Origin: Candidatus Omnitrophota bacterium
GTDB taxonomy: Bacteria; Omnitrophota; Gorgyraeia; Tantalellales; Tantalellaceae
Direction of reading: 5' to 3'
Length of the DNA stretch: 64,000 nucleotides
Assembly (NCBI GenBank): GCA_035403965.1
Contig: DAONGE010000003.1
Location: 17,860-81,859, forward strand
Shown: positions 33,654 to 55,097 of the stretch, one piece after another
Layout: each line of letters starts with the position of its first letter
Numbering within the stretch: position 1 is the first letter of the stretch
Position numbers and translations under genes: made by a program
The notes under the pieces: generated by a model
Seen by the model: the letters and a program-made list of their open reading frames with translations, nothing else
Databases searched by the model: none
What the model was told of the DNA's origin: nothing

Positions 33654-33660
33654 AATTCAT

Positions 33661-33766: not shown

Positions 33767-33787
33767 GGGGCGGGGAAACCCCGCCCC
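33767..33787. repeat. Perfect GC palindrome 'ggggcgggg aaa ccccgcccc'
   Basis: Read directly. It abuts the end of MITE-like copy 2. Confidence 0.6.
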
Positions 33788-34090: not shown

Positions 34091-34115
34091 TGCCCCATTA
34101 TTTAAAAGATTATAA

Positions 34116-37100
34116 ATGAGAGTAGATATGGGAAGATTAAGCAGGATGATAGACAGCGGGAAGGTGAAAACACTGTTCAAAAAGACGGTGTCTTCTATTG
34201 TGGCGTTTACTTTTCTTGCTACTAGTTTCTATTACGATAATGCCCAGGCTTCAAATATCAGTATGCCAGTCGTAGCGGTCGACAGTAACCCGGTAAATTC
34301 TTCAACAAATAATATACAGAGAATCCTTGATCCCAAAACATTTACTTTGCCGGAGAACTTGGGAAAGGTTGTCGATTCATGGGCAGTGAAAGATGCCCTT
34401 AAGAACGGCGACGCGAAACTTGTTATCTACATTCAGGACGCGCATTGTAACTACGGCGCGCAGAATTCCATTTCCGAGATCATCGATCTGCTCAATAAAG
34501 AATATTCCGTGAACATGGTCAATCTTGAAGGAGGAACAGGCGATTATGATCTTTCGGTTTTTACGGATATCAAGGATAAGGCGATCCGCGCCAAGGTAGC
34601 GGATTATTTTGAGAAAGAGGGGATACTGAGCGGCGCGGAATCGTTCGCCGCAAATAATCCCGAAAAGGTATCGCTCTGGGGGCTGGAAAACACCGAACTT
34701 TATATCAAAAATCTAAATGTCTATCGCGATTCGCTTACATATAAAAACGAGGCTGAAGGCTATATAAAAGCGATAAGTCGCGATCTTTCTGCGCTGAAAA
34801 CGAAGATTTACTCGCCGGAATTGCTGTCTCTGGATATGAAATACACGGCGTATAAAGCGGGGAATGCGGATCTAAAGACATATCTTCTTGGGTTAACTGA
34901 GACGGCTAAGAATGAGGGTATAAACCTTAAGTCCTATCCGAATATTTTCTTTATGATCCAGACTCTGGCTCTTGAGAACACTATCAATTTCAAAAGGGCC
35001 GAGACCGAACGAAGTATCCTGGTGGATGAATTGAGCAAAAAACTGCCGAAAAGCAGGATGGAAGACCTCGCCGCTAAAACTATTGAGTTCAGGTCAGGAA
35101 AAGTGTCGCAAAGGTATTTTTATGCGTATCTGCTGGACGAAGCGAAGATGATAAATCTTGAGATCGACACCTTCGGCGAACTCAAGAAATATATGCTTTA
35201 TATCGAGATCTTCGATGCCGTGGATAAGTCGAGAATCATGGATGAGATGGAAGGACTTGAGAACGCGGTGCGTGCAAGTATCTACACGAACGATGATGAA
35301 CGCTCTCTTAATACGCTTTCAAAGAACCTTATCCTTCTTAAGAATATGTTCAATATCTCGTTCACCCGGAGCGATCACAAATATTACAAGGACAACGCCA
35401 AGGGTTTCGCCGCGGAAGGGTTCATCTCGTTCATAAAAACGGAATCCCCGAAGTACGGGATAACCCCGTCGGCGGACGAAAAAGCCCTCGCGCTCGATAA
35501 ATTCCGCGAAGAGATATCCTGTTTTTATGAATATTCGTTCGCGAGGGACGAGGTGTTCATAAAAAACATAAAGATGAACGCTACTCCCTCCGCTAATGCT
35601 AAATGCGCGGTTATGGTAAGCGGCGGTTTCCATTCCGAGAACATGTATGAACTTTTCCGGAAGAACAATATATCGTACATATCGATAATGCCTAATTTTA
35701 AGAATTGCGACGGGTATGAATGCCCGTATTTCGATCTCTTGGGCGGTAAATACGGTAAGGTGCTGAACGCCCTTTCCGGTAGTGCGACATCGAATTTGGC
35801 GTTGTTTAGTTTCTTCTGTAAAGATGCATCGACGGTGGTCAACGGGGAGATGACGGAGGCTGGGGTTAAGACATGGTCGGTTCTTGTAAGGGCTATGTTT
35901 GAGTCCGATCTTTCAAAGGGACCGGTCGAGGTCAAAGGTGAAGGGGATAATGTTGGATACGTTATCGGTGGAGAGCCTGACCCTAATAACGAAAGCATTA
36001 CTCTCGATATGGACGGGAGACGAGTTCTGGTTCAGCGCGTAAAAACAGCCGAAAATATTTTATCTGCAACCGTCGCTGGAGATGTGGGAGCGAATGCTAA
36101 AAATGTTGGTATGAAGTCTGTCGCAACCCCGGATGATACGGAATTTTTATCATATTCTAAAATGACGCCAGAGGAATTGGATCGTGTCGAATCGGATCTT
36201 GTACAGAAAGTGCGTGGGTTATGTATGCGTCATGCCGGGCTGGCAGCTAGCGCATCCGATATTGACAATATTGCGGATATCTGTCGTAGCGTTTTATGGC
36301 TTGATGTTTATTTGACAGACAGGAAAGAGGTCGAGCGGGAGTTTTTAGAATCGTTTGATCTCATTACCCAGATATTTCATGGGAATCAGATATTAGAGCT
36401 TTTGGTGTCAGTGCTTCGTTTTGCCGATGAAGCGGAAAGAGGCAACGAGGATGCGGTGGAATTTGTGAAGAGTGTGGCAAAATTACAAGCGATCAACGAT
36501 GTTCCCAGTCAGGATGGCCGTTCGCAGACATTGCCATATTGTAAAAGTCGGAAGCCATATCTGGACATGGCGAGCGGACCGAATATTATATATTTCACAG
36601 CAGATATAAAGCAAAATGCCCAGGTTGAACACTATCTGGTGGATACTTCCTTGTTCGCGAATACATATCTCAAAATGGTCATGGCATTGAGAAATATTCA
36701 TAACGTAGAAGTGAAACAAGAAGATGTGCTGAATTTAAATTTCAAAGAGGGGAGTTTGGGCGCAGTTCGTCTGAAAAATTTATATACATATGTGCGAGAA
36801 CAGGTTTTAAAACAAATTGTCCAAAAATATGGCGAGGTGGATCTTGACTTCCACCTAAAAGAATATTGGGATGAATATTGGGATCGGGTGGCGGCTTGGC
36901 TTGAACCGGCGGCTATGGTCGATGGACATGTCCAAATCCGTGGACAGATATTTGTGCAGTCCGATTTGTCGGTGGGGCACCGGGCTAACATGGCTGAGAT
37001 CGTGCATGATATGTACGATGTGCTGGTTTCCCAAAAAGGCTGGGCGTTTGATTTTAAACTGGGGATTGATAAAGGTGGTTTTAGATATGATGTGCTTGAT

Positions 37101-40100
37101 ACAGTAATATTCACAAAACCGCCGGTTGGAGGCAGATTGGATTCTCCGCATACGTTTGAGGATTTCTTAGCGGCGATAGAAAGTGATAACGTACATTTTG
37201 AGACGGATTCGGATGAGATCCAGTCTTTCTTGGCGAATTCTTTCGGTAATATTTTTGGTAAAAAGTACGCATGGCTCGATAACGGATTAAGGATGTTATT
37301 GTTGGCCGCGACGCCGGTACATGAATTAGGCCATATTCTTGCGGCAAAATTATCCGGGCTAAGTGCGAAATGGACATTTAAAAATCTTTTTACCGGCAGT
37401 GTCGAGATAGGAAGGGCTCCGCCGAAGGTTCTCTTTGCGGGTTTGGTATCAAATCTTGTTGGTGCAGTGCTTTCCGCATCGATTTTCGCCGCGTTAAAAA
37501 TATGTTCAGACCAGCCGATTCTGTCCGTAACCGGTATTATTCTTTGCTATACCGCGGTTACAAACTTCGCGTCGTTTTTAGCGGAACTTATAGCTCTTCC
37601 GTTCGGGAAGGGGGATTTGGCCCGGGCAACAAAAAGCCCGAATGTTGAAAATATTTCGGTGCAATCTTTGACAAAATCTTATGTGGACGAGCATGGCGAA
37701 CAGCTTGCTCATGAAAGAGCGCAAAGAATGAAGGGAATGATGGGGATATACGCCGCTATGGCGATATCCGCCATCGGGGCTGTGATAACATCCTTATTGG
37801 CCTATTTTGGTTTAGATATCGTTTCACCCGCGCAATTCGCGTCTTTGATGGTGCTTTCTTTTACCGCGGTGCCGGCGGGAATGAATGTGCTTTCTCATGC
37901 CGCGTACAACCTGCTGACTTTGTCGCTCCGATCAAAAGGGGCCATGCGCGCGCTCGGAGAACAAGGTGATACGAAGCCGCTTGTTGAGTCTGTGGCCGCG
38001 CGGTATGCCATGAAACATATGGGTTCATACGAATCTACGATCGATGAGGTCGATATTTTAAAATTGCGGCATAACGAAATTTGGAACATACCCGACATAG
38101 ATATCGATGCTAAGACAGGATTACCGCGTAGTTTTGAAAGTGATGTTTGGAAGTTGGCTAAAAAGATCCCGGGTATTAAGTATGCCAAGGTTGTAAGGGC
38201 GGACCTCGGCGGTATCCCGAGCTATCATTTTGTCAGAGGGCAGACCCTGATAATAGTTCTTGATTCGGGGATAGACAGCGATCTTGTGAACGAAGCTGTG
38301 TACCATGAATTAAGAGAAACCTTCTGGCTTACACAAAAAGATCTTATGTATGAATTGTCACAAACGTCTGGTTTCCCGCCGGAACGCATAGCCCATATAA
38401 TCGCTTCCGCTGAACAGGTCACGAGGTTCGGGAAGGATGGGAATCTGACCCCATATCACGCCCGTGAGATCGCGCGTATGGATAGAAAGGCGCTTTCGGG
38501 GCTTATTGATGAAAGAACCACGGGCGGAAGGGAAAACCATATTTTTATACTTGATGAAGTGGCTAAACGTTATCCGGATGTAAAAATAGATCTTAATTAT
38601 GAGGATCTGGTAATAAGGCAAGCTGAAGCCGAATTAGGACTTGGTGAGCCGATTTTCAGGATCAAGGCCGAGAACGCGGAAGTGGCGACGGACGAGATAG
38701 ATCTGGCAGGGTTAGTGGCTTATCTGCATACCAGGGATGGGGAAAATGTGAATACCGTAGCCGGTAGCATAAAAGCCAACGATTTAGCGTCCAAAGTCAA
38801 CGGGATGTCGGGGCCCCAGTACGATAACTTTATGTCCAAGATCAGAAAAGTGAGGGAACATCAGTTCAGCGGTGCGAATCGGCCTATAGTCGAGATTATC
38901 GCTAACGCGATAGATTCTTATGTTGAAGATGACAGAAGAGCATCTGGGAGTGTCGCGGTAAATGTGGATGATAGAGGTTTTGAGGTGATCGATCAGGGTA
39001 AAGGGATGAGTCTTGACCAGGTGCTTTTGTATCTGCTCATCCCCTCATGGTCTTCCAAAAGGGGTGAAGGGGAGCTTGATATCGGTCGTTTTGGCGTGGG
39101 ATTTTATTCCGTGCTTAATTATTTGAAACATGAAGGAGATAAACTGGTCGTTGAGACTTCGAACGGCCAAGAAGGCACGAGAATAGTGTTTTATATCGCA
39201 GAGGGAGACGGTAAACAGCTGGTAAAAGTACGTTTTGAAAGCATCCCTACCACGCCGAAAGGCACGGCGGTCAGATTGATCCTTCCCGGGAAGAATTTTA
39301 GATCCATGGAACATTCCAACGTGATTGAACAATATCTAAGGTTTAATGGTAACGCACCTATATATGTCAACGGCAAACCTATCAATGCCGGGATAATGGG
39401 TGAACACGAAGGGTATAAAGTCGTTGATGTCGGCAAGAACGATCTGAGCTATTCTGAAAAAAGAGCGTCAAAAGGGAAGGCGTATATCCTGGTCAATGGC
39501 GTGACTATATTTGACGTGGATCTTGTGTGCAGTAATTCCCCGGAGACGATATTGATAAATTTCCCCAAAGACGCCAAACTCACAAAAAGCAGGGATCGCG
39601 TTATCTGCGGGGCTAATGAACGTGAATTTATTAAAGAGATGTTGTCCGTGCTTTCCAAGGATGCGAAGAACATTGATATTTTAAATGCGCTATATCCTGT
39701 GATAAGGGAACTTCAGCGCAACAACAATGATCGCGGGGATAACCTTGAACATTTTTATATAAATACAATAAAAGGCCTTGTTACATCATCGCATATTAGG
39801 GTTCTGCCGGATGTGCCATACATGGGGCAGGTAAGGTTGCAAGAGCGATATGTATTGATCCGACCGGAGTTGTTTAGACAACTCAAGAATTATAGGCCAA
39901 TTTTGCAGGAGTTCAACGGACATTCGGGTGGTTATCAGGTGTTTGTAGCGGAGTTTATGTCGGATGACATTGTTTTTGTGCACGATAATATGGTTGTCAT
40001 CCTTAACAGTAAGTATATCCCACACAACGTTGAAGAAGTGGCTGCTTTGGAGATGTTAATGGGTTTTGATGACGTCAATATCCAGTTTACGGGCGCAGAT

Positions 40101-49100: not shown

Positions 49101-52100
49101 CCCGGCGGGCAATTGACCGTTCAGGCCGATCCAACATTTAAAGGAAGAAAAGATTGTGCGGAGATGGTACGGGTGTTGTATGAAAAACTTGTTGTTAAAG
49201 ACGGGTGGTCGTTTAATGTTATTTTAGGCGTGGAAGCGCAGCAACCATTTGATTCCACTTTAGATACGGTTACTTTTGTTAAACCGAAGTCCGGACAGAG
49301 GTTAACTTCAAATAAAAATTTGGATGAATATCTCGCTTCTACAGGGCAGAAAATAGCCGTTAAAAAAGTAGAAGAACCGGCTAAGCCGATAACTCCCGCA
49401 TCACGGGAAGAAGCGTATTGGCACGGATCGATGGTTTCTTTTGATAAGTTCGATGAAAACCGGATAGGTTTTGGTACCGGGGCCAATCAGGAGGGGTGGG
49501 GTTTTTCAGTAACCCCAGGCAAAGAAAACGCGAAGGAATATGCCTCCGGTGCCGCGGGTAAATTACAGCCGGGGCAGAAACCCATATCCATTAAAATTAA
49601 AATAAATGGCCAGGAAGTGAATAGTTTTGCGGGGCATGAGAAATATTACGCGAAAAGGCTTTTTAATATTATCAGTGCAGGCGGAACGGTGGAAGACGCG
49701 CGGGAAGCATTGCTGTCGGAGGTCCGTGAAGCCGGAGATGCGGAAATGGAAAAGTTTATTGCGAATGCGGATATCACCGTAAATATAGAAAGATATTTAT
49801 ACAGGATCGATGTCGGCGAAGATCCTGTTTGGCTGGAGCTGAATGGAAAGCCTGATAAGTCCGTATGGACTATGATACAGGCGCAGGCTTCAAAAGAAGG
49901 GGTATCTTTCGGGAAGTATTTTAATATCGTTGATGGCGAGCCGCAAGTTAACATGGGCAGGGAAATATATGCCGCGCTTATCAATATCCTTGGTTCGGAT
50001 AAAGAGGCGTCTTTGTTTCTGGATAGATCCGGTATCACCGGGAACAAGTCCGGACATTTTTATACGGTTTTTCCGTCAAGGATCAAGATGCGGGAACGAA
50101 TAGATATGAACGAAAATATCAAAAAGGGTGGAGCTATAGTCCCCGAGGCGGAAGCTGGAAAAGGTGCTGAAAAGAGGATGACGAAAGAAGAACTGCGTGA
50201 AAGGGTTAACAGGATACAAGAAGAAATATCTACGGTAGGATCGTTCCCGTCTGTTAAGGAGGCGATAAAACGTGTTTCGGAGATCATCCGGTCGGTACAC
50301 GCAAAAGACGCGAAAAGGCCGGTCATTGTCGTTCTTGACGGGCCGCATATCGGCAAATCTACCACGGCGGACGCTATTATGGGTAAAAATACGGTGTTAG
50401 GCGAGAATTTCGCGGCTGAGACAAATATGGATTCACGTGAAATTTATTTTATCAGGGGAGACTATTTCCATGAATTTTATGCGAGTAGCAATACGCAGGG
50501 ATACGATTATCTGAATAGACTGGATGAACTGCCGGAGAAAGAAAAGAACCGTTATCTGCATCTTCAAAATTTGAAAACTGACAAAGCGGATGCACAAAAG
50601 GGTAAAATAGTGCTGAAAAACGCGATGAAAGATTATGGCTCGTATTTACAATATTTTGTTAATACGTATCTTTCAAAAATATTGGCAGAGTCCGGAAAAC
50701 GTGTGGTTCTTTGGGACGAAGCCGGAGGTGAGGGGTATTTCACAGGTGGCGCTATTTCGCAAGGGGACGTGGATAATCCGGTTGCGATGATATTTGTTAC
50801 ACTTCAGCAGCCTTTGGGGAGCGGCTCGGTAGGAGCGACTGTAAAAACATGGGATTGGGGCGATGTCAAACCGATCTCCGCGGCCCCAGCGGCGGAGGCG
50901 GGGAAAGGGACCATACCCGCAAAAACCGAAATAATTACTGCCCTAATATCAAAACGGACAGGCAGTATAGTGGACATAATGGCAGGTGTAAAAGAAGATG
51001 TTTTGGATAAGTATTCCGGAATACATCATGTGCCAGTCTCTGAATTGGACACGATAGAAATAAACGTTCCGGATGGTGTGTATCATGGCGTGCATGCGTC
51101 TTCGATTATAAGCGCCCATGCGACGGACAAATATACAAAAGGAAAAGAGGGATTAAAAGTTCTGGTCATCGGAACAGGGATGGGACTTGAAGCTTATATC
51201 GCGGCAAAGAACGGCGCGACCGTGACAGCGGTCGATATTAACAAAGACGCCGTGAAATGCACCAGAGATCTTTGCGATAGGTTGGGTGTGGGAGAAAGAG
51301 TCACCTGCATGGTCAGTGATCTTTTCAGCGCGCTTGGGAATAATACGTATGATCTTATTGTGTTCAATATGCCACATCCGAAACTGGGGGATGATAATCG
51401 TATCACGAAAGATGGGGATATAAATGTTGTTGATGTGGGTGAAAGACTTTTAAATGTCACTGCGTCCGAGGTGGACAAATATTTGAACTCGCAAGGGATA
51501 GCCGTACTTGTTGATTCAGAGCAGACACGAATAGAGAAAATATTCGCTCAAAATCCGAATGTGAACGTTACACACGATTTTTTTGATGTTGAAGGGCCGT
51601 CAGTGGCATATATACTTACGAAGAAAGATATGGCCCCTGCGCCGGGGATTGGTGGATATTCGGTGGATGGAAGAGAAATGTTGTGGAATGTTGATAACGC
51701 CATGCATGTGCCGTGGAAAGAAACCGTGCGAGATGTTGTCCAAGAGCCCGAGTCAAAAACAAAAACCCTGAATCAGAAAAATTATCTTAATAATCAGCTC
51801 GAGGTGAGGAAGATGTTTCTTGATCTCTTAGGGCGCATGAAATCTGCGGAAAAAATTGATTTTGCCGCGGAACTAAAGAAATTGCACGATGTACTATTAT
51901 TGGGCAGAAACGGGGATTCGCCATATATTCCAGAGCTTCAAACCGATGATGATATGGTTATTGCAGACGAAACCGGAAATGTTCAAAAAAAGAGAATATC
52001 GAAATTGCAGGAATATGGTACGGAGTATACCGATTGGGGCAGGGGAAGAGCAAGTACTGATGGGCCAATACACAACGCGTTGCGGGAATTTCTGAATTTG

Positions 52101-55097
52101 GATCCAGAAAAAACGAGCGTGAACGAAATGATCAAATGTGTGGCAGAGTTCTATAACGCTTTTATACAAAAAGACACAAAAGACTATATCTTTCAGTCCG
52201 GAAATAATTCTTTGGGGATGAATATGGTCAATGGGATGTTGCGGCTATGGTTACCGGAAGGGATCGCGCATGGTATGCGGGATTATGATTCGTTTAAGGA
52301 CACATTGAAAGATTCGCTGTTCAGCGCGGTGGTTACAGCCAACAAACAGATAAATGGTGAAACAAAATTGGCCGCGCTTAGACGACAAATACCGCCCGCC
52401 CCCGGGCCGGTTTCTGTGGATAGTGGTGCGAATAAGGAGGGGAATGATATAAAAGAATATCTAAATATCGAAAATAAAGATTGCCCGAATGATGATGTTT
52501 CTAAAGCAATCAAGATTATCTCTGGCAAGGAGAGCTATGATCAAGTTGTGCTTGAGCTGGGTTGCGGGGAGGCTATAGCGGCGGGGTTTATTGCTAAGGA
52601 TAACCGCCGGGTTGGGGTGATCGCGACCGATTTGTACCCGATTGAAGCACGGGGGTCATATGGAGATGTCGCCCGGGAATGGCAAACGGGGGGATTGGAT
52701 GCACAAAATCAAAGGCTTCCCAATCTTGCAATAGTTAGAGCGACCGCAGAGATATTCTCAAAGTTACCCGACAATTCTGTGGATTATATCATTTTTAATA
52801 ACCCGGCTTCGCCCGTAATGTTTGATATTATTAGGGCTTTAATGAATGGTGAAATTGAAAGGGTTCTTAAACCGGGCGGGAAACTATTCGTTAAACCACA
52901 AACGATGGATATCGTTGAACATTACAGACCAGGGGAGAGATATTCCGGTGATTCCGAAGTTGATGGTTTTATAGCGGAACTTAAAAAGTTTGTGTCTGGG
53001 GATAGGGCCTCTTTTTACCAGCTTTTACAGGGCGGGATGGGCGGTTTAAAGATCGAGATGAGAGAAGAAGAGGAAGGAAATTTTGTTGTTTTTGGAGTTG
53101 ATTTTAACGAAAAGGCAGAATGGGCGGAACATGCAGTAAATAAAAATGTTCTCGAATGGACAAAAACTGCCGTCGCCGCGGCTGAGTCGGATAAGATTTC
53201 AGCTCCGTCCGCCGTAGCGACAAAGACTGAAGATGTGGAAAACAAAAACTTGCCGTCAACGGTTCATGGCCCAGAGACAGAACCTCAGTTGCGCGGATTA
53301 AAAGAGGCTGAAATACGGTGGAGCGAAGCACTGGAAGTTTGTAAAAATGCCGCGCTGGAAGCTGATAAGGCAATAGAGAGAATGAGAAAAACTTCCACAG
53401 CTGAAAATCGGGAGAAATTGGAGCTGGCTGTCGGGGAATTGTTTGATGCCAGGAAATCATTTAAAGTCGTGGAGACGGGCTTTTCGGGAAAAGTAACCGA
53501 ATTTTATGAGACCGGAGCGATCAATACGGAAAGATATAACGCGTATTTAAAAGATATCGAAGGTACGAAGGTTTCAAATCTAGTTGCATTAGAGGGGCGA
53601 AGGGCGCTACTTTTCAGCGATGGGGACTATGACTACTATAAAGAGCAGCTGGAAGTTTTGGTGGTAGGTTATGACCCAAATCGACCGGTTGATCCGTTTG
53701 TCAAAAAAGTCTTGGGCGTACTTAAAAAACCGTCGGCGGCTGAATTCAATGACATGTTACAGCTTAGCATACCGTCGGAGATAGGATTTAAGTTTAACGG
53801 TCATGGTATGTGGCACAGTTACAATTTTGGCGGCGCTATAAGGGATCTGATCGATATGTTGCGAAAAGGTATCGACCCGGCAAGAGCAATAAATGAGATG
53901 CCTCTTAGCGCCACTGAGGGAAGCGGTTCCGGATTTGGGGCTACGAGCCCGATCGATAGCGTTAACGGTATTACCATTGTGAGCCCTATGGGTACGTCTT
54001 TGAACGAAGGCGGTATTAAGTATGTTATCATGAGCGAATTTTATAGTGAAATAATTCCTGACCTGCAAAGGGAATTTCCAAACGTCAAATTTGTTACAGC
54101 TTTACAAGCCGTGGAAGTTTTGCGGGAAGAAATATCTAAAGGTTCTGTGACCCCAGCGGCTGAGGCGGATGAGGTTTCAGCAGTTGTCGGAAAAACCACT
54201 ATTTATGATATTTTGGGGGAGCAGGATAAGGTGCTTGGGCAGACATTAGACACTCCATGGGGGACTTATGCCGGTGGTGCGGGTGAAAAACTTTATGCCG
54301 GGGATCTAGCGGGGCAAATGAAACGTGATCCGGACGGTAATGTGGAATTTACAAATTATATAAAAGCGCTAACGGACGACTTGAACAGGGGAGTGCTGAA
54401 CATTCACCTTCTCCCGGCGTTCAATATCGAGGCGGCGGCGGTGCAAGTCAGCGGCGGGAAAAAGGCCGCGAAGGAATTTAGAAAGAAAATGGGTGTAAAC
54501 ACGTTATTGCTGCATTTTAACAACGGCGCGGGGACCACGCTCCGTGACCAGTTGAAAGCTGCGATAGATGAGGCTGAAAAAACCGTCAATAAAGATCTAT
54601 GCGTAAAGATAGGCGTTAATGTGGTCGGACAACAGCAAGAGGAACTGGAAAAAATTATGACGGAGATGCAGTTGTCCGACGCTCAGCGTAGAATGATTGT
54701 TATTGAGAGTGAAGCATTGCCGGACGGAGCGACGCTTGATAATTTTACCATGGATGAGGTAAAAGCCGTTATTGTCGGCAGCGCGATACTTAATGATAAC
54801 CGCCTGTGTGTCGATTTCGGCCTTCCGGCCGAACGGCTTATGGAGAATAGGCGCCGTATGCTTACCGCGTTTTCTGAATCCGGGATAATTGATATAGGTG
54901 AGGCGATAAACGCGGTGAACGATGACGCGCCTGGGACGATAATAAACACGGAAGTAGGTCAGATGACGGCGAATGAGCTGGACGCGATCATGAGAGAAGT
55001 CTATAAAGGAAAGGTAACTCTCCGTATAAACAAGGTCAACTGGGAAGAACTCCGCGATTACGAGGACTCAATGGCCGCCGTGCTTAAATCTCTATAA
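34116..55097 (+). CDS. Giant (6,993 aa) membrane-anchored multi-module protein. Modules recognised: TraB/Tiki-like, 2x Rossmann MTase-like, HExxH segments, 2x sacsin/Hsp90-like GHKL ATPase, GNAT, kinase-like, 2x HD phosphohydrolase, P-loop NTPase, HemK-like and class-I methyltransferases.
   Basis: A single stop-free frame runs for 20,982 nt in roughly 45%-GC DNA, which is impossible by chance. Paralogous modules repeat inside it, and a paralogous gene start is found at 63339. Two starts are possible: ATG at 34116, or ATG at 34128 with a weak 'gagag' RBS. The individual motifs are listed under the module features. Confidence 0.9.
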   Translation: MRVDMGRLSRMIDSGKVKTLFKKTVSSIVAFTFLATSFYYDNAQASNISMPVVAVDSNPVNSSTNNIQRILDPKTFTLPENLGKVVDSWAVKDALKNGDAKLVIYIQDAHCNYGAQNSISEIIDLLNKEYSVNMVNLEGGTGDYDLSVFTDIKDKAIRAKVADYFEKEGILSGAESFAANNPEKVSLWGLENTELYIKNLNVYRDSLTYKNEAEGYIKAISRDLSALKTKIYSPELLSLDMKYTAYKAGNADLKTYLLGLTETAKNEGINLKSYPNIFFMIQTLALENTINFKRAETERSILVDELSKKLPKSRMEDLAAKTIEFRSGKVSQRYFYAYLLDEAKMINLEIDTFGELKKYMLYIEIFDAVDKSRIMDEMEGLENAVRASIYTNDDERSLNTLSKNLILLKNMFNISFTRSDHKYYKDNAKGFAAEGFISFIKTESPKYGITPSADEKALALDKFREEISCFYEYSFARDEVFIKNIKMNATPSANAKCAVMVSGGFHSENMYELFRKNNISYISIMPNFKNCDGYECPYFDLLGGKYGKVLNALSGSATSNLALFSFFCKDASTVVNGEMTEAGVKTWSVLVRAMFESDLSKGPVEVKGEGDNVGYVIGGEPDPNNESITLDMDGRRVLVQRVKTAENILSATVAGDVGANAKNVGMKSVATPDDTEFLSYSKMTPEELDRVESDLVQKVRGLCMRHAGLAASASDIDNIADICRSVLWLDVYLTDRKEVEREFLESFDLITQIFHGNQILELLVSVLRFADEAERGNEDAVEFVKSVAKLQAINDVPSQDGRSQTLPYCKSRKPYLDMASGPNIIYFTADIKQNAQVEHYLVDTSLFANTYLKMVMALRNIHNVEVKQEDVLNLNFKEGSLGAVRLKNLYTYVREQVLKQIVQKYGEVDLDFHLKEYWDEYWDRVAAWLEPAAMVDGHVQIRGQIFVQSDLSVGHRANMAEIVHDMYDVLVSQKGWAFDFKLGIDKGGFRYDVLDTVIFTKPPVGGRLDSPHTFEDFLAAIESDNVHFETDSDEIQSFLANSFGNIFGKKYAWLDNGLRMLLLAATPVHELGHILAAKLSGLSAKWTFKNLFTGSVEIGRAPPKVLFAGLVSNLVGAVLSASIFAALKICSDQPILSVTGIILCYTAVTNFASFLAELIALPFGKGDLARATKSPNVENISVQSLTKSYVDEHGEQLAHERAQRMKGMMGIYAAMAISAIGAVITSLLAYFGLDIVSPAQFASLMVLSFTAVPAGMNVLSHAAYNLLTLSLRSKGAMRALGEQGDTKPLVESVAARYAMKHMGSYESTIDEVDILKLRHNEIWNIPDIDIDAKTGLPRSFESDVWKLAKKIPGIKYAKVVRADLGGIPSYHFVRGQTLIIVLDSGIDSDLVNEAVYHELRETFWLTQKDLMYELSQTSGFPPERIAHIIASAEQVTRFGKDGNLTPYHAREIARMDRKALSGLIDERTTGGRENHIFILDEVAKRYPDVKIDLNYEDLVIRQAEAELGLGEPIFRIKAENAEVATDEIDLAGLVAYLHTRDGENVNTVAGSIKANDLASKVNGMSGPQYDNFMSKIRKVREHQFSGANRPIVEIIANAIDSYVEDDRRASGSVAVNVDDRGFEVIDQGKGMSLDQVLLYLLIPSWSSKRGEGELDIGRFGVGFYSVLNYLKHEGDKLVVETSNGQEGTRIVFYIAEGDGKQLVKVRFESIPTTPKGTAVRLILPGKNFRSMEHSNVIEQYLRFNGNAPIYVNGKPINAGIMGEHEGYKVVDVGKNDLSYSEKRASKGKAYILVNGVTIFDVDLVCSNSPETILINFPKDAKLTKSRDRVICGANEREFIKEMLSVLSKDAKNIDILNALYPVIRELQRNNNDRGDNLEHFYINTIKGLVTSSHIRVLPDVPYMGQVRLQERYVLIRPELFRQLKNYRPILQEFNGHSGGYQVFVAEFMSDDIVFVHDNMVVILNSKYIPHNVEEVAALEMLMGFDDVNIQFTGADVKGGSNSKIIGENIGSEKNTSMLNNMKKWAGNFPGIVSFPLVILMKVVEGIGLFISKIPYLDVFMPRTANIGPYKGRDYTFFRHMLSSVESRILPNDDMSKDPAYVKALEERIKKDVLGKGKKRVDLWKDFLKRYNIESFDFAKTVENILDLTRKRSESMREGKSRVGESGEHQLGSEEYKGMDKLMDDPVFMADVVALEFINKISMNLLAFFSSDKEMRNCFDQMVKGLRAVGMGYGECLALFEGIVKNSSRNQRMNSHDVLVRMKGIVSCIDRLKNVNFADGEEMETFLSKLATRRWLARITYPKFDRNSHTYLVFDAKNSSPMTWDLSNFYSGNDLDDIDSPSGSYRESLVRGILLLTEILAGDKFDQRYKDKYFDILGKKFLSAERGEIAPGELAQFVMYFSGIVSVEENKDERFLDVLEKELTKLIRLCKNTIDSDGRSQYPRVSDIAVKGHSLDIVSTFTDAGDAKYLFDYLQVFSDTVRFKDVDVSLRLSLWKTIMARHIGRSEGFQEWSYTYSSTDKEGEIRIWKTAQDEYEYIVNVLCKLTDHGVTSSKDVHRIARPYVFCLDSGTDILKKDVSPDSARIGGELNTPYSLKLSTLVALYLGGAMKDKNAMEKDKTAMELLDMARSGADTAGLITEVSRETAKNSIIESINYESSDEYIFIREIIQNVLDAKGKELDVSAINGRDWCQLGFTDNVGMSIERVVKFLLIPDSTTKLEDKEARGKFGQGFFTVLKDARMVRVKTSDGTGKLVIVQMTPVRKGELIVDVDISVEIKDDASFKGTNIEWLRDSDIPQLETAIVRSKLLTYGCLIDDAELKINWTVNNTTAVINKNKELMGQIETEYGKVGLYHSGDKENVVTHRGLYVREIDKYFWDTIPVHIREQLSDYGIIIDLPAGVELISDRSDVTNKEEILSKLQPHLAKLSIIAILDLFASNKVKLGFMPYDFMKDGRNWIIPNSVKDDAAALKNGQQINVAPYVASGTLFGQLIASIPFISLKGKDEHFSLVYVLEGIENGSIFLDDIVNENIVECITTVMKRKAQSRRQAEERREKGYKEFYDITLPIEGRRDDADVYWAFSEFMKEVSVMLIAGQRENLGSAEVMFYGSVGNDKAHAFQNSSAMGWNIYSNMELFDQFSKYLRDEIPPDQAIYTIRDMFSTQLHELAHMLENTGETTHNDEFFARQKALTKSFLMSIGEISKIAEKIKHEYKGTVIDVKSFANYLLEYRDKGVSPVTLRDFPAKDIRSPKQMSVLTLTKTYAQDHAEELLKLHHLIEGQKWTTDQLLADMWKQGEYGSSKDRPFAGKWEHSFVATSADGKPIGVLIAYERPANEMQGVDGAALYVHAIAVDPMYQGSGVGKRLMLELAEQLKLRGLQYLTASRGETRIALQTGDDNLAAQKFYFNLGFEEVGRKYYPASGDGEAHSDLVLSASCEDVIKNIIGAPASVAVNNMDAFKLTHPWKDFPDQNGRYIADMIADHLSDRVYIARQIQALFPGVAIRPADLVSVSVEPGSHRSGSYKDYNIVNVTAGDKQYRFGILAGVLFKNEYSEKKLFADNGIGPRVGDMGDNEIFKRLNKLEVGMVAVQHVEGETVSELIDRGDWKEASDIYAEILRKFNTIGFFGLDIFNNGDNVIKGNDGNLYIIDHCVSEDKTDNLKYPLHVLFALMLQANSRGETEVLDTLDHEKIDEIVQMWYRDFYMDKPDSEIEDEIDKILLAAGDFSYLAQNPRDVIKTGILGYLAESLKKTAFTDTKGYEAGFAPLKDARFIAGSLAMGVVFAATSLLSGSLGVGIAFGIAAAAISVSSISYFTRSESGVRSSGNEGMSRREWLTAAGIGIISLSPVIAETVNSFIKQNNAGMEMPDIVMSDEQIRDLVATLKGMGFEIDAEMVRSSIRNSNKEKNKTMVKEIYEGMRADANIPWNRDDVYPVLFVDGLKEEGFAMAITDIPLIIVPAENIPKDKKQREAWLGEKIAHEGTHIANRELVELGAMTRLEDEAAAYRVTAAAVEKYEPLNKEGIITQRMVSSAFDVIISPSGQAKLKELVNIPFDRMYYDNIKILGNYVGIRIYQDAPEGSKVKKVVWVDVSEGEIKGIDLDLKMELSSAGKGLTSVVLAASLLPGSNREQADRISLNVYKLILKRGLEKHVGALRREGVIDKGLLDVFERALNDMFDKDLKDKDVVTWHDYTHAANMALRAMEAMENVLKENPGMSANALLLTAIAAMYHDVGYYSADPFSGARKFGHEDRSMAYVRDHERDLGILSRDAARINLMISATKVEMGSVFRDLDPLVNKISSGKASADEIARVKTLLGQNGFSVDTLGLDLSDHRDVEYLLALIYGGEILATLDVYDTRPDVAERIDDLHNEFNFDRDTINQKLADEKDSNVRAKLEMLVSTLEMSKDHLDAIGKTREFYKKYADDRVAGFGVWGKYIKGEIIDDFDAKRAGIYAIGEAAANPDLASSAQYADRHLSRADLEFISRFSVMVELERKGMPNFGSLRDIIPRAPPILSLETIIDVFNGIWNAYIYANVPSDELAAVGRFKADTIRHSILTAELIGLVIRRMEKDGQVFSDQDVRDIMIAAIFHDIGKYITAREMASNRIFAKEERPAIVHKHVDILHGNPDKGDYKKFRDVLASYGISIRGSSITAIQGMMGEHYVTAMPGQNERHRTVEMGYLLYMCDDLLGRFDGAREHKKPLEGFSSVVNMAYDRVQKVKTDAELSRDKFYIACTNALSEIMPADMMEADDVDKKTFTGLLYENAFLSFRPLVTSSSWAGIANDKVAQARVKQGLERKIITMYAEHDPSTSKSIIGYKGEKYLLEVIREVLELDVFAPDRNYVVSGLNEEFRIPGIRAKDIARSIFALADGSDAAAKEFVRAVAELAALNEIDFVKEFKQKLPKDDSDKPYLDLASGPNIAYFSNDLGASRKYYFVDRSYYVSTFLERMMELTGHNNVEIMQKDILDLDFGDESLGTVRVKNLLLYAKVPDTYWDKAAKWITPGGQLTVQADPTFKGRKDCAEMVRVLYEKLVVKDGWSFNVILGVEAQQPFDSTLDTVTFVKPKSGQRLTSNKNLDEYLASTGQKIAVKKVEEPAKPITPASREEAYWHGSMVSFDKFDENRIGFGTGANQEGWGFSVTPGKENAKEYASGAAGKLQPGQKPISIKIKINGQEVNSFAGHEKYYAKRLFNIISAGGTVEDAREALLSEVREAGDAEMEKFIANADITVNIERYLYRIDVGEDPVWLELNGKPDKSVWTMIQAQASKEGVSFGKYFNIVDGEPQVNMGREIYAALINILGSDKEASLFLDRSGITGNKSGHFYTVFPSRIKMRERIDMNENIKKGGAIVPEAEAGKGAEKRMTKEELRERVNRIQEEISTVGSFPSVKEAIKRVSEIIRSVHAKDAKRPVIVVLDGPHIGKSTTADAIMGKNTVLGENFAAETNMDSREIYFIRGDYFHEFYASSNTQGYDYLNRLDELPEKEKNRYLHLQNLKTDKADAQKGKIVLKNAMKDYGSYLQYFVNTYLSKILAESGKRVVLWDEAGGEGYFTGGAISQGDVDNPVAMIFVTLQQPLGSGSVGATVKTWDWGDVKPISAAPAAEAGKGTIPAKTEIITALISKRTGSIVDIMAGVKEDVLDKYSGIHHVPVSELDTIEINVPDGVYHGVHASSIISAHATDKYTKGKEGLKVLVIGTGMGLEAYIAAKNGATVTAVDINKDAVKCTRDLCDRLGVGERVTCMVSDLFSALGNNTYDLIVFNMPHPKLGDDNRITKDGDINVVDVGERLLNVTASEVDKYLNSQGIAVLVDSEQTRIEKIFAQNPNVNVTHDFFDVEGPSVAYILTKKDMAPAPGIGGYSVDGREMLWNVDNAMHVPWKETVRDVVQEPESKTKTLNQKNYLNNQLEVRKMFLDLLGRMKSAEKIDFAAELKKLHDVLLLGRNGDSPYIPELQTDDDMVIADETGNVQKKRISKLQEYGTEYTDWGRGRASTDGPIHNALREFLNLDPEKTSVNEMIKCVAEFYNAFIQKDTKDYIFQSGNNSLGMNMVNGMLRLWLPEGIAHGMRDYDSFKDTLKDSLFSAVVTANKQINGETKLAALRRQIPPAPGPVSVDSGANKEGNDIKEYLNIENKDCPNDDVSKAIKIISGKESYDQVVLELGCGEAIAAGFIAKDNRRVGVIATDLYPIEARGSYGDVAREWQTGGLDAQNQRLPNLAIVRATAEIFSKLPDNSVDYIIFNNPASPVMFDIIRALMNGEIERVLKPGGKLFVKPQTMDIVEHYRPGERYSGDSEVDGFIAELKKFVSGDRASFYQLLQGGMGGLKIEMREEEEGNFVVFGVDFNEKAEWAEHAVNKNVLEWTKTAVAAAESDKISAPSAVATKTEDVENKNLPSTVHGPETEPQLRGLKEAEIRWSEALEVCKNAALEADKAIERMRKTSTAENREKLELAVGELFDARKSFKVVETGFSGKVTEFYETGAINTERYNAYLKDIEGTKVSNLVALEGRRALLFSDGDYDYYKEQLEVLVVGYDPNRPVDPFVKKVLGVLKKPSAAEFNDMLQLSIPSEIGFKFNGHGMWHSYNFGGAIRDLIDMLRKGIDPARAINEMPLSATEGSGSGFGATSPIDSVNGITIVSPMGTSLNEGGIKYVIMSEFYSEIIPDLQREFPNVKFVTALQAVEVLREEISKGSVTPAAEADEVSAVVGKTTIYDILGEQDKVLGQTLDTPWGTYAGGAGEKLYAGDLAGQMKRDPDGNVEFTNYIKALTDDLNRGVLNIHLLPAFNIEAAAVQVSGGKKAAKEFRKKMGVNTLLLHFNNGAGTTLRDQLKAAIDEAEKTVNKDLCVKIGVNVVGQQQEELEKIMTEMQLSDAQRRMIVIESEALPDGATLDNFTMDEVKAVIVGSAILNDNRLCVDFGLPAERLMENRRRMLTAFSESGIIDIGEAINAVNDDAPGTIINTEVGQMTANELDAIMREVYKGKVTLRINKVNWEELRDYEDSMAAVLKSL
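34410..35700 (+). other. Giant protein module 1: TraB/GumN/Tiki-like (ChaN/erythromycin-esterase superfamily) domain, following an N-terminal signal-anchor
   Basis: N-terminal hydrophobic anchor 'VSSIVAFTFLATSFYY'. 'LVIYIQDAHCNYG' and 'CAVMVSGGFHSEN' resemble the two GxxH-type motifs of the TraB/Tiki family. The assignment is tentative. Confidence 0.3.
36540..36960 (+). other. Giant protein module 2a: Rossmann SAM-methyltransferase-like domain (paralogue of 48800..49330)
   Basis: 'PYLDMASGPNIIYF' (motif I-like), 'YLVDTS' (acidic end of beta2), 'NVEVKQEDVLNLNF' and 'GAVRLKNLY'. It aligns closely with 'PYLDLASGPNIAYF..YFVDRS..NVEIMQKDILDLDF..GTVRVKNLL'. Confidence 0.5.
37300..37930 (+). other. 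Giant protein module 3: hydrophobic multi-helix segment with an HExxH embedded in a predicted TM helix (S2P/M50-like intramembrane metalloprotease-like)
   Basis: 'LLLAATPVHELGHILAAKL' is followed by three or four hydrophobic helices and then 'AELIALPFGKGDLA', which resembles the S2P LDG region. A second hydrophobic block 'MMGIYAAMAISAIGAVITSLLAYFGL...' follows. Confidence 0.35.
38850..39300 (+). other. Giant protein module 4a: sacsin/Hsp90-like GHKL ATPase domain
   Basis: N-box 'IVEIIANAIDSY', G1 'FEVIDQGKGMS', G2 'GRFGVGFYSV' (compare Hsp90 'GQFGVGFYS'). Confidence 0.65.
42090..42500 (+). other. Giant protein module 4b: second sacsin/Hsp90-like GHKL ATPase domain
   Basis: N-box 'IFIREIIQNVLDA', G1 'GFTDNVGMS', G2 'GKFGQGFFTV'. 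Confidence 0.65.
43960..44360 (+). other. Giant protein module 5: GNAT N-acetyltransferase domain
   Basis: 'IGVLIAYE', 'HAIAVDPMYQGSGVGKRLMLELAE' (motif A Q/R-x-x-G-x-G) and 'FYFNLGFEEVG' (motif B). Confidence 0.6.
44640..45110 (+). other. Giant protein module 6: protein-kinase-like fold (atypical)
   Basis: 'VTAGDKQYRF' (Lys), a hinge-like 'HVEGETVSELI', 'GLDIFNNGDNVI' (catalytic-loop-like) and 'LYIIDHCVS' (DFG-position Asp). The assignment is tentative. Confidence 0.3.
45412..45650 (+). other. Giant protein internal transmembrane helices
   Basis: 'FIAGSLAMGVVFAATSLLSGSLGVGIAFGIAAAAISVSSISYF' and 'WLTAAGIGIISLSPVIAETV'. Confidence 0.5.
46650..47200 (+). other. Giant protein module 7a: HD-domain metal-dependent phosphohydrolase
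   Basis: 'WHDYTHAANMALRA...LLLTAIAAMYHDVGYY...FGHEDRSMAYVRDH' gives the H...HD...H...D pattern. Confidence 0.65.
47740..48200 (+). other. Giant protein module 7b: second HD-domain phosphohydrolase
   Basis: 'RHSILTAELIGLV...DIMIAAIFHDIGKYIT...HKHVDILH'. Confidence 0.65.
48800..49330 (+). other. Giant protein module 2b: Rossmann SAM-methyltransferase-like domain (paralogue of module 2a)
   Basis: 'PYLDLASGPNIAYF', 'YFVDRS', 'NVEIMQKDILDLDF' and 'GTVRVKNLL'. Confidence 0.5.
50250..50800 (+). other. Giant protein module 8: P-loop NTPase / nucleoside(tide)-kinase-like
   Basis: 'PVIVVLDGPHIGKSTTADAI' is a Walker A-like motif (compare Tmk 'GxDGxGKTT'). A candidate Walker B 'RVVLWDEAGGEG' lies downstream. 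Confidence 0.45.
51100..51620 (+). other. Giant protein module 9: HemK/PrmC-like amino-methyltransferase (NPPY variant 'NMPH')
   Basis: Motif I 'LKVLVIGTGMGLEAY', 'VTAVDIN' and motif IV 'YDLIVFNMPHP'. Confidence 0.55.
52480..52960 (+). other. Giant protein module 10: class-I SAM methyltransferase (NPPY-like 'NNPA')
   Basis: 'QVVLELGCGEAIAAGF', 'VGVIATDL', 'VDYIIFNNPASP' and 'LKPGGKLFV'. Confidence 0.55.

Follow-up and report, generated by a model that had tools for sequence, protein, structure and literature searches.

The 21-kb open reading frame analysed here encodes the second-longest known member of a hitherto undescribed protein family, in which two conserved terminal domains, the N-cap and the C-cap, enclose a slot for variable cargo. 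The family is restricted to the Omnitrophota, has no Pfam model, and consists of a signal peptide, the N-cap, a linker representing an insertion hot spot, and the C-cap. Through acquisition and shuffling of enzyme cassettes and through duplications within the gene, this slot has filled with a cargo of about 6,100 aa in the giant member. The capped family is what is new. As the initial annotation had noted, multi-enzyme giants of the Omnitrophota are themselves known from two preprints, which describe 'Archaeovorin-type' proteins (West-Roberts et al. 2023, bioRxiv 10.1101/2023.11.21.568195) and 'class 1 multi-enzyme / Pfam Module 1' proteins (Nielsen & Lui 2026, bioRxiv 10.64898/2026.06.07.730766), neither of which mentions the N-cap/C-cap pair.

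A single chromosomal gene

The reading frame extends from an ATG start over 6,993 codons to its stop without any internal stop codon, exactly as first annotated (20,982 nt, 6,993 aa), a stop-free run expected by chance at a frequency of about 1e-193 at the same composition. A codon-usage log-likelihood model trained on the neighbouring housekeeping genes gives values above zero in frame 0 and below zero in frames 1 and 2 for all blocks of 1.5 kb (14/14), the codon usage of frame 0 being host-like throughout. The DNA of the gene is 100% identical, flanks included, in two further public assemblies (L017 and L018), the reading frame is intact and its synteny unchanged in one ENA and one JGI assembly, and the protein is already deposited in GenBank as HPS19632.1, under the label "GNAT family N-acetyltransferase". 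The source community is that of JGI 3300010352 and ENA ERZ27257423. The frame is thus confirmed as a single, real gene on the chromosome of an uncultivated member of the Omnitrophota. That the gene arose from a chimeric assembly, or from an artificial joining of separate genes, is hardly credible: one JGI contig has the gene split, at aa ~1720, into products of 1,710 and 5,263 aa, and overlapping read sets may underlie all available copies, but the 21 kb and their flanks are identical across three assemblies, composition and coding statistics are uniform along the gene, the two caps occupy its two ends as in more than 100 relatives, and a relative of 7,165 aa exists.

Table 1. Features of the giant gene and of the neighbouring family member. 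Positions refer to the window, i.e., the whole stretch of 64,000 nucleotides analysed.
Feature	Residues	Position	Strand	Basis
Complete ORF, 6,993 codons + stop		34116..55097	+	coding statistics; identical DNA in L017, L018
Predicted Sec signal peptide	1-46	34116..34253	+	basic n-region KVKTLFKK, ~15-residue h-region, AQA↓S
N-cap	~70-560	34323..35795	+	TIKI/TraB/ChaN/erythromycin-esterase-fold alpha/beta core, ~290-aa helical insert
Helical/small beta sub-domain and linker, still conserved family head	561-718	35796..36269	+	family BLAST
PYLD class-I methyltransferase-like module, copy 1	719-1020	36270..37175	+	weak Methyltransf_31/25
M50/site-2-protease-like membrane module	1040-1260	37233..37895	+	HELGH in hydrophobic helix, 4 TM-like segments
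Sacsin-type GHKL ATPase-like module 1	1580-1760	38853..39395	+	ExxxNAxD, DxGxG, GxxGxG intact
33-residue hydrophobic segment (one TM or hairpin)	2024-2056	40185..40283	+	hydropathy
GHKL-like module 2	2650-2800	42063..42515	+	self-BLAST; second HATPase_c_3/NF047352 stretch
HELAH zincin-like module	3100-3200	43413..43715	+	motif; weak WLM, E 0.006, sub-threshold
GNAT acetyltransferase-like module (RimI-like)	3283-3422	43962..44381	+	Q-x-x-G-x-G; PF00583 49.6 bits vs 20.7
Unverified module, initially called kinase-like	3432-3750	44409..45365	+	26% identity to P0211
Cluster of ~3 TM-like segments	3764-3847	45405..45656	+	hydropathy
HEGTH zincin-like module	3862-4075	45699..46340	+	motif; M48 only at E 0.19
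HD-like module 1 (tentative)	4140-4480	46533..47555	+	HD motif; E 0.01 self-match to HD module 2
HD/HDIG phosphohydrolase-like module 2	4520-4720	47673..48275	+	PF01966 29.6 bits vs 22; TIGR00277
PYLD methyltransferase-like module, copy 2	4816-5075	48561..49340	+	Methyltransf_11 22.0 bits vs 21.2
ART-PolyVal-like module (tentative ADP-ribosyltransferase fold)	5100-5354	49413..50177	+	PF18760
P-loop-like module (weak)	5395-5590	50298..50885	+	GPHIGKST motif
HemK/PrmC- and Mad2-like amino-methyltransferase module	5643-5838	51042..51629	+	GxGxG; NMPH replaces NPPY
Second class-I methyltransferase-like module (NNPA)	6121-6261	52476..52898	+	Methyltransf_12 42.1 bits vs 30
C-cap	~6720-6993	54273..55097	+	family-specific alpha/beta domain, end ...K[VI][DN]W..[LF]..[WY]......L.S[LV]-COOH
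Second family member, start only (signal-peptide-like N-terminus and N-cap), cut by the window end		63339..64000	+	BLAST

The capped family and its cargo slot

The N-cap is present in more than 130 Omnitrophota proteins, and both caps in at least 110, which range from 870 to 7,165 aa in length. Of the 67 proteins that have a C-cap and a length of 1,500 aa or more, 56 carry the N-cap at residues ~50-540, and both ends of the giant are matched by some 25 short members. Across 110 two-cap proteins, the stretch between the caps measures from 15 to 6,309 aa (median 450), that of the giant (6,115 aa) ranking second. A C-cap profile matched 127 cluster representatives among 1.84e9 and found no carrier longer than 7,165 aa. 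The minimal members (~870-960 aa) essentially consist of the caps only, and syntenic orthologues such as P0076 (962 aa) and P0065 (1,231 aa) differ in the size of their insert.

Several paralogues occur per genome, and the cargo is hypervariable among paralogues and close relatives. Modules of the giant recur one by one, in another order, in further members, while cargo elsewhere in the family includes protein kinases, ABC1, APH, metallophosphatase, PolyA_pol-type nucleotidyltransferase, cNMP-binding, ARMT1 and CofD domains. A conserved HExxE/H...HTxxRGxG module adjoins the C-cap in about 50 relatives; its HMM finds no match in the giant. The gene starting at 63339, initially taken as a second paralogue indicative of a gene family, does share the N-terminal domain of the giant (43% identity over 218 aa, E 4e-48); in L017 and L018 this gene is likewise truncated, where the contigs end.

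Structural organization of the caps

At the extreme N-terminus, where a membrane anchor had been proposed, a cleavable Sec signal peptide looks likelier, the h-region of the giant falling below the 19-residue TM threshold in hydropathy analysis. Within the family, 145 of 152 N-termini combine a basic n-region with a hydrophobic h-region, and 83 display AxA.

The TraB/Tiki-like N-terminal domain of the initial annotation was recovered, both in its core fold and in its D-x-H...E...H residues. The N-cap HMM matches aa 70-554 of the giant, with the invariant motifs Q107-D108-A109-(H110), E138-G139 and G503-x-x-H506. The core is an alpha/beta fold with a parallel sheet, as in the TIKI/TraB/ChaN/Ere superfamily, and D108-x-H110, E138 and H506, which are invariant or nearly so (54-76 sequences), follow the strands 100-106, 134-137 and 495-501, respectively. 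TIKI enzymes possess a 2His/2Glu catalytic motif (PMC6254334); residues of this type also occur at the strand ends of the N-cap, but the first acidic residue is Asp instead of Glu. The N-cap further differs from the TIKI/TraB/PrgY/ChaN/erythromycin-esterase superfamily in that its core is broken by an all-helical insert of ~290 residues and in that it invariably heads a capped protein of several domains at the N-terminus. The Pfam models TraB_PrgY_gumN, Cofac_haem_bdg and Erythro_esteras match none of 10 N-caps even at E<=10, and Foldseek found no PDB match at E<0.1 for a minimal member of 953 aa. Judged from its intact D-x-H...E...H set, the N-cap, of TIKI/TraB/Ere-superfamily fold, is a predicted hydrolase.

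Family BLAST matches reach aa ~600-770 of the giant and the cargo slot starts around aa 705-720; in the minimal member P0085, which has 953 aa, the corresponding linker is disordered at aa 677-710. The C-cap comprises ~250 aa and, in the giant, ends at the very last residue with the conserved tail. Among the full-domain matches listed, in proteins of up to 7,165 aa, the C-cap match reaches the C-terminus or stops at most 3 residues short of it.

Cargo modules of the giant

As read from motifs and profiles, the cargo comprises four methyltransferase-like, two sacsin-type GHKL, two HD, one GNAT, ART-like and P-loop-like modules, together with three HExxH peptidase-like modules and three membrane-helix clusters. 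The overall interpretation of the initial annotation is partly supported. Most of its domain list stands; the kinase-like fold and the N-terminal anchor were not confirmed. Profile-HMM searches, suggested along with that annotation, placed the GNAT, sacsin-type GHKL, HD, two methyltransferases and the second PYLD copy above curated cut-offs, and the catalytic motifs of the GHKL, GNAT, methyltransferase and HD modules read as intact. PDB sequence searches with both halves, family alignments and single modules returned RimI-like and weak Der-GTPase matches only. When aa 701-1300 and aa 5090-6299 served as queries for homologues, nothing was returned, an uninformative result since the identical deposited protein was missed too.

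The two PYLD modules, first described as Rossmann modules, are both present (36% identity, E 7e-46 by self-BLAST, with the motif PYLD[ML]ASGPNI at 814 and 4903) and are identified as probable methyltransferases. The two NPPY-variant methyltransferases also hold, in an NMPH and an NNPA version both above curated cut-offs, and match each other at 5734-5772 and 6211-6250. The former resembles PRK14968 (E 1.9e-23) and PADLOC mad2 (E 1.7e-25) in addition to the MTS and Methyltransf_11/25/31 models, and the latter shares 36% identity with a module of P0214. The proposed pair of sacsin/Hsp90-type GHKL ATPases is borne out by the first module, which exceeds the cut-offs of NF047352 (54.4 bits vs 50) and HATPase_c_3 (40.5 vs 25) and aligns with HtpG/HSP90 models over 1582-1753, and by an internal duplication (1630-1705 vs 2699-2769); a PADLOC TmtA match covers 2656-2734 of the second. 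The GNAT module also agrees with the first reading, since PF00583 lies well above its cut-off, and RimI models, RimI of the PDB (E 0.001) and PHROG acetyltransferases all match. One of the two HD phosphohydrolases is supported by its profile; the other remains tentative, resting on its motif and a self-match (4219-4253 vs 4578-4612), is common to the giant and P0127, and has no Pfam match.

All three HExxH sites noticed at first were found, i.e., HELGH at 1069, HELAH at 3162 and HEGTH at 3973. The M50-like module of the first site (Peptidase_M50B E 0.05, sub-threshold) recurs in P0207, P0210, P0213 and P0201 at 35-44% identity, and the HEGTH module in P0164, P0136 and P0141 at 31-33%. The ART-like module scores below the cut-off of ART-PolyVal PF18760 (E 2.4e-4, 22.3 bits vs 31.2), matches phrog_4700 and shares 42% identity with a module of P0211. 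This sub-threshold match and the three HExxH modules represent hints of an effector type. For the P-loop NTPase, the GPHIGKST motif is present but support is weak (Der GTPase of the PDB, E 0.005, aa 5395-5448). The supposed kinase-like fold has no match in Pfam or the PDB, nor any significant match to an authentic kinase carried as cargo within the family.

The internal TM helices of the initial annotation correspond to the three clusters of hydrophobic segments. A test based on the parity of TM segments, with both caps expected on the same side of the membrane, was rejected because the hydropathy counter double-counts overlapping windows.

Comparison with known systems

The giant shares with the multi-enzyme giants of the Omnitrophota the phylum, a single ORF tiling unrelated enzyme domains, internal duplications, a signal peptide and/or TM helices, and a repertoire of methyltransferase, GHKL-type ATPase, GNAT, HD and peptidase domains. 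However, its GHKL match is to PF13589/NF047352 instead of the PF02518 of Module 1 of Nielsen & Lui, its 6,993 aa lie below the catalogue thresholds of the preprints (at least 10 kaa and at least 30 kaa; 10,000 aa in Nielsen & Lui), and Pfam/NCBIfam searches of the protein found no SecA_DEAD, C39/S8 peptidase, glycosyl hydrolase/transferase, NUDIX or dockerin domain. What the giant has in common with the Archaeovorin-type proteins is limited to methyltransferases, peptidase-like modules and TM segments.

As with sacsin, a eukaryotic chaperone of 4,579 aa with repeated HSP90-like regions, sacsin-type GHKL/HATPase modules are repeated in the giant, but the likeness is confined to the ATP-binding core of ~80-170 aa. 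The giant is bacterial and predicted to be exported or membrane-bound, is devoid of UBL, DnaJ and HEPN domains, and has an otherwise unrelated architecture. Compared to MARTX toxins, to which it shows no sequence homology, the giant has internal TM clusters and uses the TIKI fold as a conserved head, not as a cargo item; RTX/GD repeats, a cysteine protease domain and nearby type I secretion genes are missing from the protein and its neighbours in Pfam/NCBIfam searches. The initial exclusion of an NRPS/PKS and of a repetitive adhesin was upheld: both candidates were rejected, as the Pfam/NCBIfam searches revealed no condensation, adenylation, KS, AT or carrier domains and no repeat-domain Pfams (Ig-like, cadherin or similar), and TRF a sole tandem array of 42 bp in the 21-kb gene.

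Polyvalent proteins of phages and conjugative elements associate from two to more than 15 disparate enzymatic domains, including methyltransferases, GNAT, kinases, ARTs, zincin peptidases and nucleotide-metabolising domains, with a processing by zincin-like domains proposed (Iyer et al. 2017, PMC5512222). The giant resembles this description by its many disparate enzymatic domains, its zincin-like modules and its sub-threshold ART-PolyVal match. That it should be such a protein of a chromosomally integrated phage, plasmid or conjugative element is nevertheless very improbable, and a mobile-element origin was rejected. It differs by its chromosomal location, signal peptide, TM segments and family-specific caps, and its flanking genes are housekeeping (pyrG/carAB/GOGAT on one side, asmA-like/tilS/queH on the other). 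Integrase, virion, conjugation and replication genes are all missing from the 64-kb window, as are tRNAs and any shift in composition, and PHROGs matches of the giant are limited to acetyltransferases and one family of unknown function. A PADLOC scan gave the Mad2-like methyltransferase and TmtA-like GHKL similarities only, with no known defence system indicated.

Possible functions

The giant may be an exported, membrane-threaded multi-effector devoted to host or prey interaction, the favoured reading, proposed with tentative confidence and drawing, for lifestyle and field hypotheses, on the two Omnitrophota preprints. Sec would export the protein, its internal helices would thread it into the inner membrane, and it would serve as a 'polyvalent' multi-effector in a host- or prey-dependent lifestyle. 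Since its enzymes need ATP, SAM, acetyl-CoA or NAD, they would act on a partner cell or within it, or else on proteins of the envelope and of the partner. Processing, either of the polyprotein or of target proteins, would fall to the TIKI-type N-cap, the zincin-like modules or both. A broader proposal, which appears rather unlikely as it stands, is that the N-cap/C-cap proteins are an Omnitrophota-specific modular effector chassis, whose caps provide export, delivery and/or autoprocessing. The secreted TIKI-type head and the C-terminal domain would flank a recombination-tolerant slot in which cassettes are inserted, duplicated and exchanged, giving a graded series from cap-only proteins of ~900 aa to multi-effectors of 7 kaa; such caps would be analogous in function to the arms and protease of MARTX, though unrelated in evolution.

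The giant could instead be a regulatory or maintenance scaffold tethered to the inner membrane and acting in cis, an alternative that seems somewhat unlikely. Most of its enzyme modules would face the cytoplasm of the producer as a fused signalling/quality-control 'metabolon' that modifies the producer's proteins, nucleic acids or nucleotides, with the periplasmic N-cap as a sensor or processing head. The need for cytoplasmic cofactors (ATP, SAM, acetyl-CoA), the likeness of the HemK/RimI-like and HD/GHKL modules to housekeeping modifiers and the housekeeping neighbourhood are in keeping with this scaffold. In addition, aa ~1260-3760, past the M50-like TM cluster, may well be cytoplasmic, and Nielsen & Lui consider that the MTase/HATPase/GNAT/HD module would fit a cytoplasmic reading with an anchor in the inner membrane. 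In members such as P0101, which carries kinase cargo, and P0204 and P0235 (3.4-3.7 kaa), however, the signal-peptide-like N-terminus is the only hydrophobic segment, so that their whole cargo is predicted outside the cytoplasm; a cargo hypervariable among close relatives and paralogues, unusual for housekeeping, and the several paralogues per genome also argue against the scaffold. A largely neutral accretion, in which an insertion-tolerant linker collects gene fragments with at best a minor selected function and the caps alone are important, is improbable. The continuous variation of the between-cap length, the lack of detectable homologues or Pfam matches for most cargo and the non-conserved order of the modules speak for such accretion. 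It accords poorly with 21 kb devoid of stops or frameshifts and host-like in codon usage throughout, with nucleotide- and cofactor-binding motifs intact in the GHKL, GNAT, methyltransferase and HD modules, with duplicated modules still open and recognisable at ~35% identity, and with the retention of the same cassettes by distant members.

Significance of the capped family

The giant multi-enzyme genes of the Omnitrophota are known but opaque, most being sequence singletons that allow few comparisons. The capped family has two recognisable, alignable ends and spans lengths of ~870 to 7,165 aa; its orthologues and paralogues can therefore be aligned and the gain of cargo traced, which makes the growth of a giant gene tractable. 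A small cap-only member of ~950 aa offers an experimental entry point to the predicted TIKI-type hydrolase activity as well as to export and processing. Should the effector interpretation be correct, the family would amount to a new architecture for delivery among nanobacteria that depend on a host and, if its caps do form a chassis, to a living archive of giant-gene construction in predatory or episymbiotic nanobacteria.

Integrity and occurrence of the giant gene

As the initial annotation had proposed, the gene of the giant, a predicted protein of 6,993 aa, is a real gene made of a single unbroken ORF which starts with an ATG. A stop codon is expected every ~16 codons at the base composition of the window, and the probability of such a stop-free run by chance is ~1e-193. 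With a codon-usage model trained on the housekeeping genes located upstream, all fourteen 1.5-kb blocks give a positive log-likelihood in frame 0 but negative values in the two other forward frames, so that the gene resembles native coding sequence over its entire length. Neither GC content nor skew shifts over the gene and its flanks, and a repeat adhesin is ruled out since Tandem Repeats Finder detects only one array, of 42 bp.

The giant is already present in databases under an uninformative name. The 90% cluster of P0122, a 5,263-aa fragment identical (100%) to residues 1731-6993, contains both HPS19632.1 (NCBI, 6,989 aa, a MAG TPA entry labelled "GNAT family N-acetyltransferase") and a JGI protein of 6,983 aa, and the three predictions differ in the choice of the start codon only. 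Two other contigs (ENA ERZ27257423 k141_365529 and JGI 3300010352 Ga0116247_10000408), from assemblies that may have reads in common, carry identical DNA across all 21 kb together with the same neighbours. On an 83,026-bp JGI contig the gene is called as two products of 1,710 and 5,263 aa, the first ending at aa 1720 (window ~39270) and the second restarting at aa 1731 with the rest identical; this split could stem from an error in sequencing or assembly, or from a genuine strain variant whose gene is disrupted. Among the GTDB species-representative genomes no close relative occurs, the best N-domain identity being 40%. Rfam gives no match in the non-coding gap preceding the gene, and the ATG is not preceded by any obvious Shine-Dalgarno sequence; in other annotations, a 47-aa ORF is placed in this gap and the giant starts 4 or 10 codons further downstream.

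A family defined by two caps

With the first 800 residues as a query, more than 130 proteins were retrieved, almost all labelled Omnitrophota. These N-terminal relatives, typically of 900-1,400 aa and often several in one MAG, share 38-51% identity with the giant across ~550 residues. In the back-comparison, ~25 proteins of ~950 aa match the giant at aa ~20-600 and ~6740-6993, with nothing between. The N-terminal region (N-cap) is a head with a TIKI fold, in which residues of catalytic type are conserved. A HMMER profile of the C-terminal domain (C-cap) recovered only 127 proteins, up to 7,165 aa long, from 1.84 billion cluster representatives and, among the full-domain matches listed, each ends at most 3 residues from the last residue of the protein. 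The N-cap occurs at residues ~50-540 in 56 of the 67 C-cap proteins of at least 1,500 aa, and the remaining ones look like contig-truncated fragments. Both caps are complete in 110 proteins, separated by ~15-6,309 residues (median 450), the ~6,115 residues of the giant being the second largest value. Neither cap has a Pfam model, and neither is mentioned in the two preprints devoted to Omnitrophota giants (West-Roberts et al. 2023, 10.1101/2023.11.21.568195; Nielsen & Lui 2026, 10.64898/2026.06.07.730766).

The paralogue announced at 63339 was confirmed: this ORF opens with another N-cap (43% identity), 8.2 kb past the end of the giant, and runs off the window; in both other assemblies, too, a contig end truncates it. 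More remote homologues of the N-cap (~25% identity), from L012 (Ca. Auribacter fodinae), L015 and L013 (an Elusimicrobiota-labelled MAG), head proteins of 3.4-3.5 kaa devoid of a C-cap and, in one case, a protein of 580 aa. The two-cap subfamily is thus only a part of the N-cap family, which may extend outside Omnitrophota if the MAG labels are not binning errors.

Features of the giant (aa) and of the surrounding window (nt); P0xxx denotes related proteins sharing a module
Feature	Position	Strand	Remarks
STT3/PglB-type oligosaccharyltransferase homologue, 829 aa	nt 10-2499	-	PF02516, E 4e-19
S41 C-terminal processing peptidase	nt 2534-3820		adjoins STT3/PglB homologue
774-aa ORF	nt 3854-6178		no Pfam hit; near STT3/PglB homologue
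[FeFe]-hydrogenase maturases	nt 9058-13079	+	HydF, two radical-SAM/BATS proteins (HydE/HydG-like)
Long co-directional glutamine/ammonia-handling run	nt 13822-33555	+	class-II GATase protein, GS type III, GAF-ANTAR regulator, glutamine-dependent NAD synthetase (NadE), GOGAT large/small, CarA/CarB, PyrG
PEP-CTERM-tagged protein	nt 15221-15979		inside the preceding run
Non-coding gap	nt 33556-34115		560 bp
Giant gene	nt 34116-55097	+	6,993 codons
Small-ORF cluster	nt 59229-60407	+	downstream of giant
Prepilin-type N-terminal methylation-motif protein	nt 59776-60192		in small-ORF cluster
Second N-cap gene	nt 63339-64000	+	incomplete
M50-like membrane module	around HELGH-1069		sub-threshold; also P0207, P0210, P0213, P0201
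Hydrophobic clusters	aa ~1101-1260, 2024-2056, 3764-3847
Sacsin-type GHKL ATPase	aa 1589-1671		above curated threshold; HSP90/HtpG models align to ~1753; GHKL blocks also P0179
GHKL copy 2			internal similarity or sub-threshold hits
WLM-like zincin	around HELAH-3162		sub-threshold
GNAT	aa 3299-3408		above curated threshold
"Kinase-like" module	aa 3432-3750		also P0211
HEGTH module	HEGTH-3973		sub-threshold; also P0164, P0136, P0141
HD/HDIG	aa 4544-4602		above curated threshold
HD copy 1 (also P0127)			internal similarity or sub-threshold hits
ART-PolyVal-like module	aa 5102-5217		E 2.4e-4, below cut-off; also P0211
HemK/PrmC-like methyltransferase	aa ~5643-5812		above curated threshold; PADLOC Mad2 E 1.7e-25; methyltransferases also P0137, P0214
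Second methyltransferase	aa 6146-6257		above curated threshold
PYLD copy 1			36% identity to copy 2, E 7e-46
PYLD copy 2			Methyltransf_11, above curated threshold
P-loop			weak

The cargo slot

The modules comprised between the caps (the cargo) had been mostly correctly recognized in the initial annotation, except that no support was found for the kinase-like module and that the two PYLD modules, read as generic Rossmann domains, are instead methyltransferase-like. The GHKL, GNAT, methyltransferase and HD modules retain intact nucleotide- or cofactor-binding motifs, and roughly a third of the giant is unannotated.

Across the family the cargo is hypervariable, and single modules of the giant reappear elsewhere in it, ordered differently. 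The cargo of other members includes protein kinases (in 4 of 12 large members), kinases of the ABC1 and APH types, a metallophosphatase, HEAT repeats and a PolyA_pol-type nucleotidyltransferase. GTDB genomes encode N-cap proteins of 3.4-3.9 kaa which are less closely related and whose cargo includes cNMP-binding, ARMT1 and CofD domains. Two syntenic orthologues differ by an insert of ~270 aa. In the structure model of a cap-only member, a disordered linker connects the head to the C-cap, and the cargo of the giant starts at this very site, at about aa 705-720. Read most simply, the region between the caps is an insertion-tolerant slot which gains, duplicates and exchanges enzyme cassettes.

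A conserved module of ~140 aa, without any Pfam hit and absent from the giant, directly precedes the C-cap in ~50 members, 310-350 aa from the C-terminus, e.g., in P0130 (aa ~2490-2640), P0128, P0124, P0146, P0015 and P0025. Its motif, '...VxLEDxExxxGxF...LYLNxxL...PLxxxHE[LM]GE...PEGY...HT[YF]MRG[AV]GxDxRxA', precedes 'T[DE]SExALIxYN' and 'LLFGLQDxLDPxGN', and the copies show HExxE (44/54) or HExxH (4/54). By analogy with the protease of MARTX toxins, which is similarly placed, it may be a processing module.

Export and topology

Of 152 full-length N-termini of the family, 145 are signal-peptide-like: a basic n-region, with a median net charge of +3, leads into a hydrophobic stretch, and in 83 of the 152 an AxA motif lies just past this stretch. 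Export and topology were assigned by hand-made hydropathy rules rather than a trained predictor. The hydrophobic N-terminus of the giant had been taken for a membrane anchor; it suits a cleavable Sec signal better, because the stretch is short (~15 residues) and followed by AQA|S. Several members, among them P0101 (with kinase cargo) and P0204 and P0235 (3.4-3.7 kaa), possess no second hydrophobic segment and are predicted to be entirely extracytoplasmic. The internal transmembrane helices expected in the giant correspond to three hydrophobic clusters, whose number of spans, and with it the sidedness of the modules, is ambiguous; a parity test on transmembrane segments between the caps gave no reliable result.

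Genomic neighbourhood

Ordinary chromosomal genes flank the giant on both sides, those downstream encoding AsmA/DUF748-like, alpha/beta hydrolase, GGDEF response regulator, prepilin-type, epimerase, QueH and TilS proteins. The STT3/PglB homologue suggests a capacity for N-linked protein glycosylation in the source bacterium. No hydrogenase structural gene accompanies the maturases in the window. Secretion and pilus genes have been reported near giant genes in the two preprints; beside the prepilin-type protein, no secretin or ATPase occurs at 59229-60407.

Possible function and significance

The product of the giant gene would be an exported, membrane-threaded multi-effector protein serving the dependence on hosts or prey that is attributed to Omnitrophota; processing of the polyprotein or of its targets might fall to the N-cap, to the three zincin-like modules, or to both. 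This tentative reading is suggested by the combination of ATP-, SAM-, acetyl-CoA- and NAD-using enzymes with export signals, by the variation of the cargo between paralogues, and by an overall architecture resembling MARTX toxins and phage/plasmid polyvalent proteins. The RTX repeats, cysteine protease domain and type I secretion genes of MARTX toxins do not accompany the giant and, unlike polyvalent proteins, it is not borne on a mobile element.

The main rival, a cis-acting regulatory scaffold facing the cytoplasm, is somewhat less probable, and a largely neutral accretion of modules comes next, as an improbable explanation. A mobile-element origin is hardly credible, since the flanks are ordinary and the 64-kb window contains no tRNA, Rfam hit, integrase, phage gene or conjugation gene. 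That the giant is an assembly artefact, as the split JGI contig and possibly shared reads might insinuate, is very unlikely even with shared reads, in view of the identical 21-kb DNA and neighbours in the ENA and JGI contigs.

As a phenomenon, multi-enzyme Omnitrophota giants are already known: both preprints describe ORFs in which many enzymes are tiled, this very combination of methyltransferase, GHKL, GNAT and HD modules among them. The giant differs from the Archaeovorin type in lacking the defining SecA_DEAD, glycosidase and NUDIX domains. With respect to the searched literature and Pfam, the capped family itself appears new, as does the realization that a giant of ~7 kaa amounts to a scaffold of ~900 aa, made of caps only, with an expanded middle. 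The family, whose function is putative, makes the growth of giant genes accessible both to comparison and to experiment.
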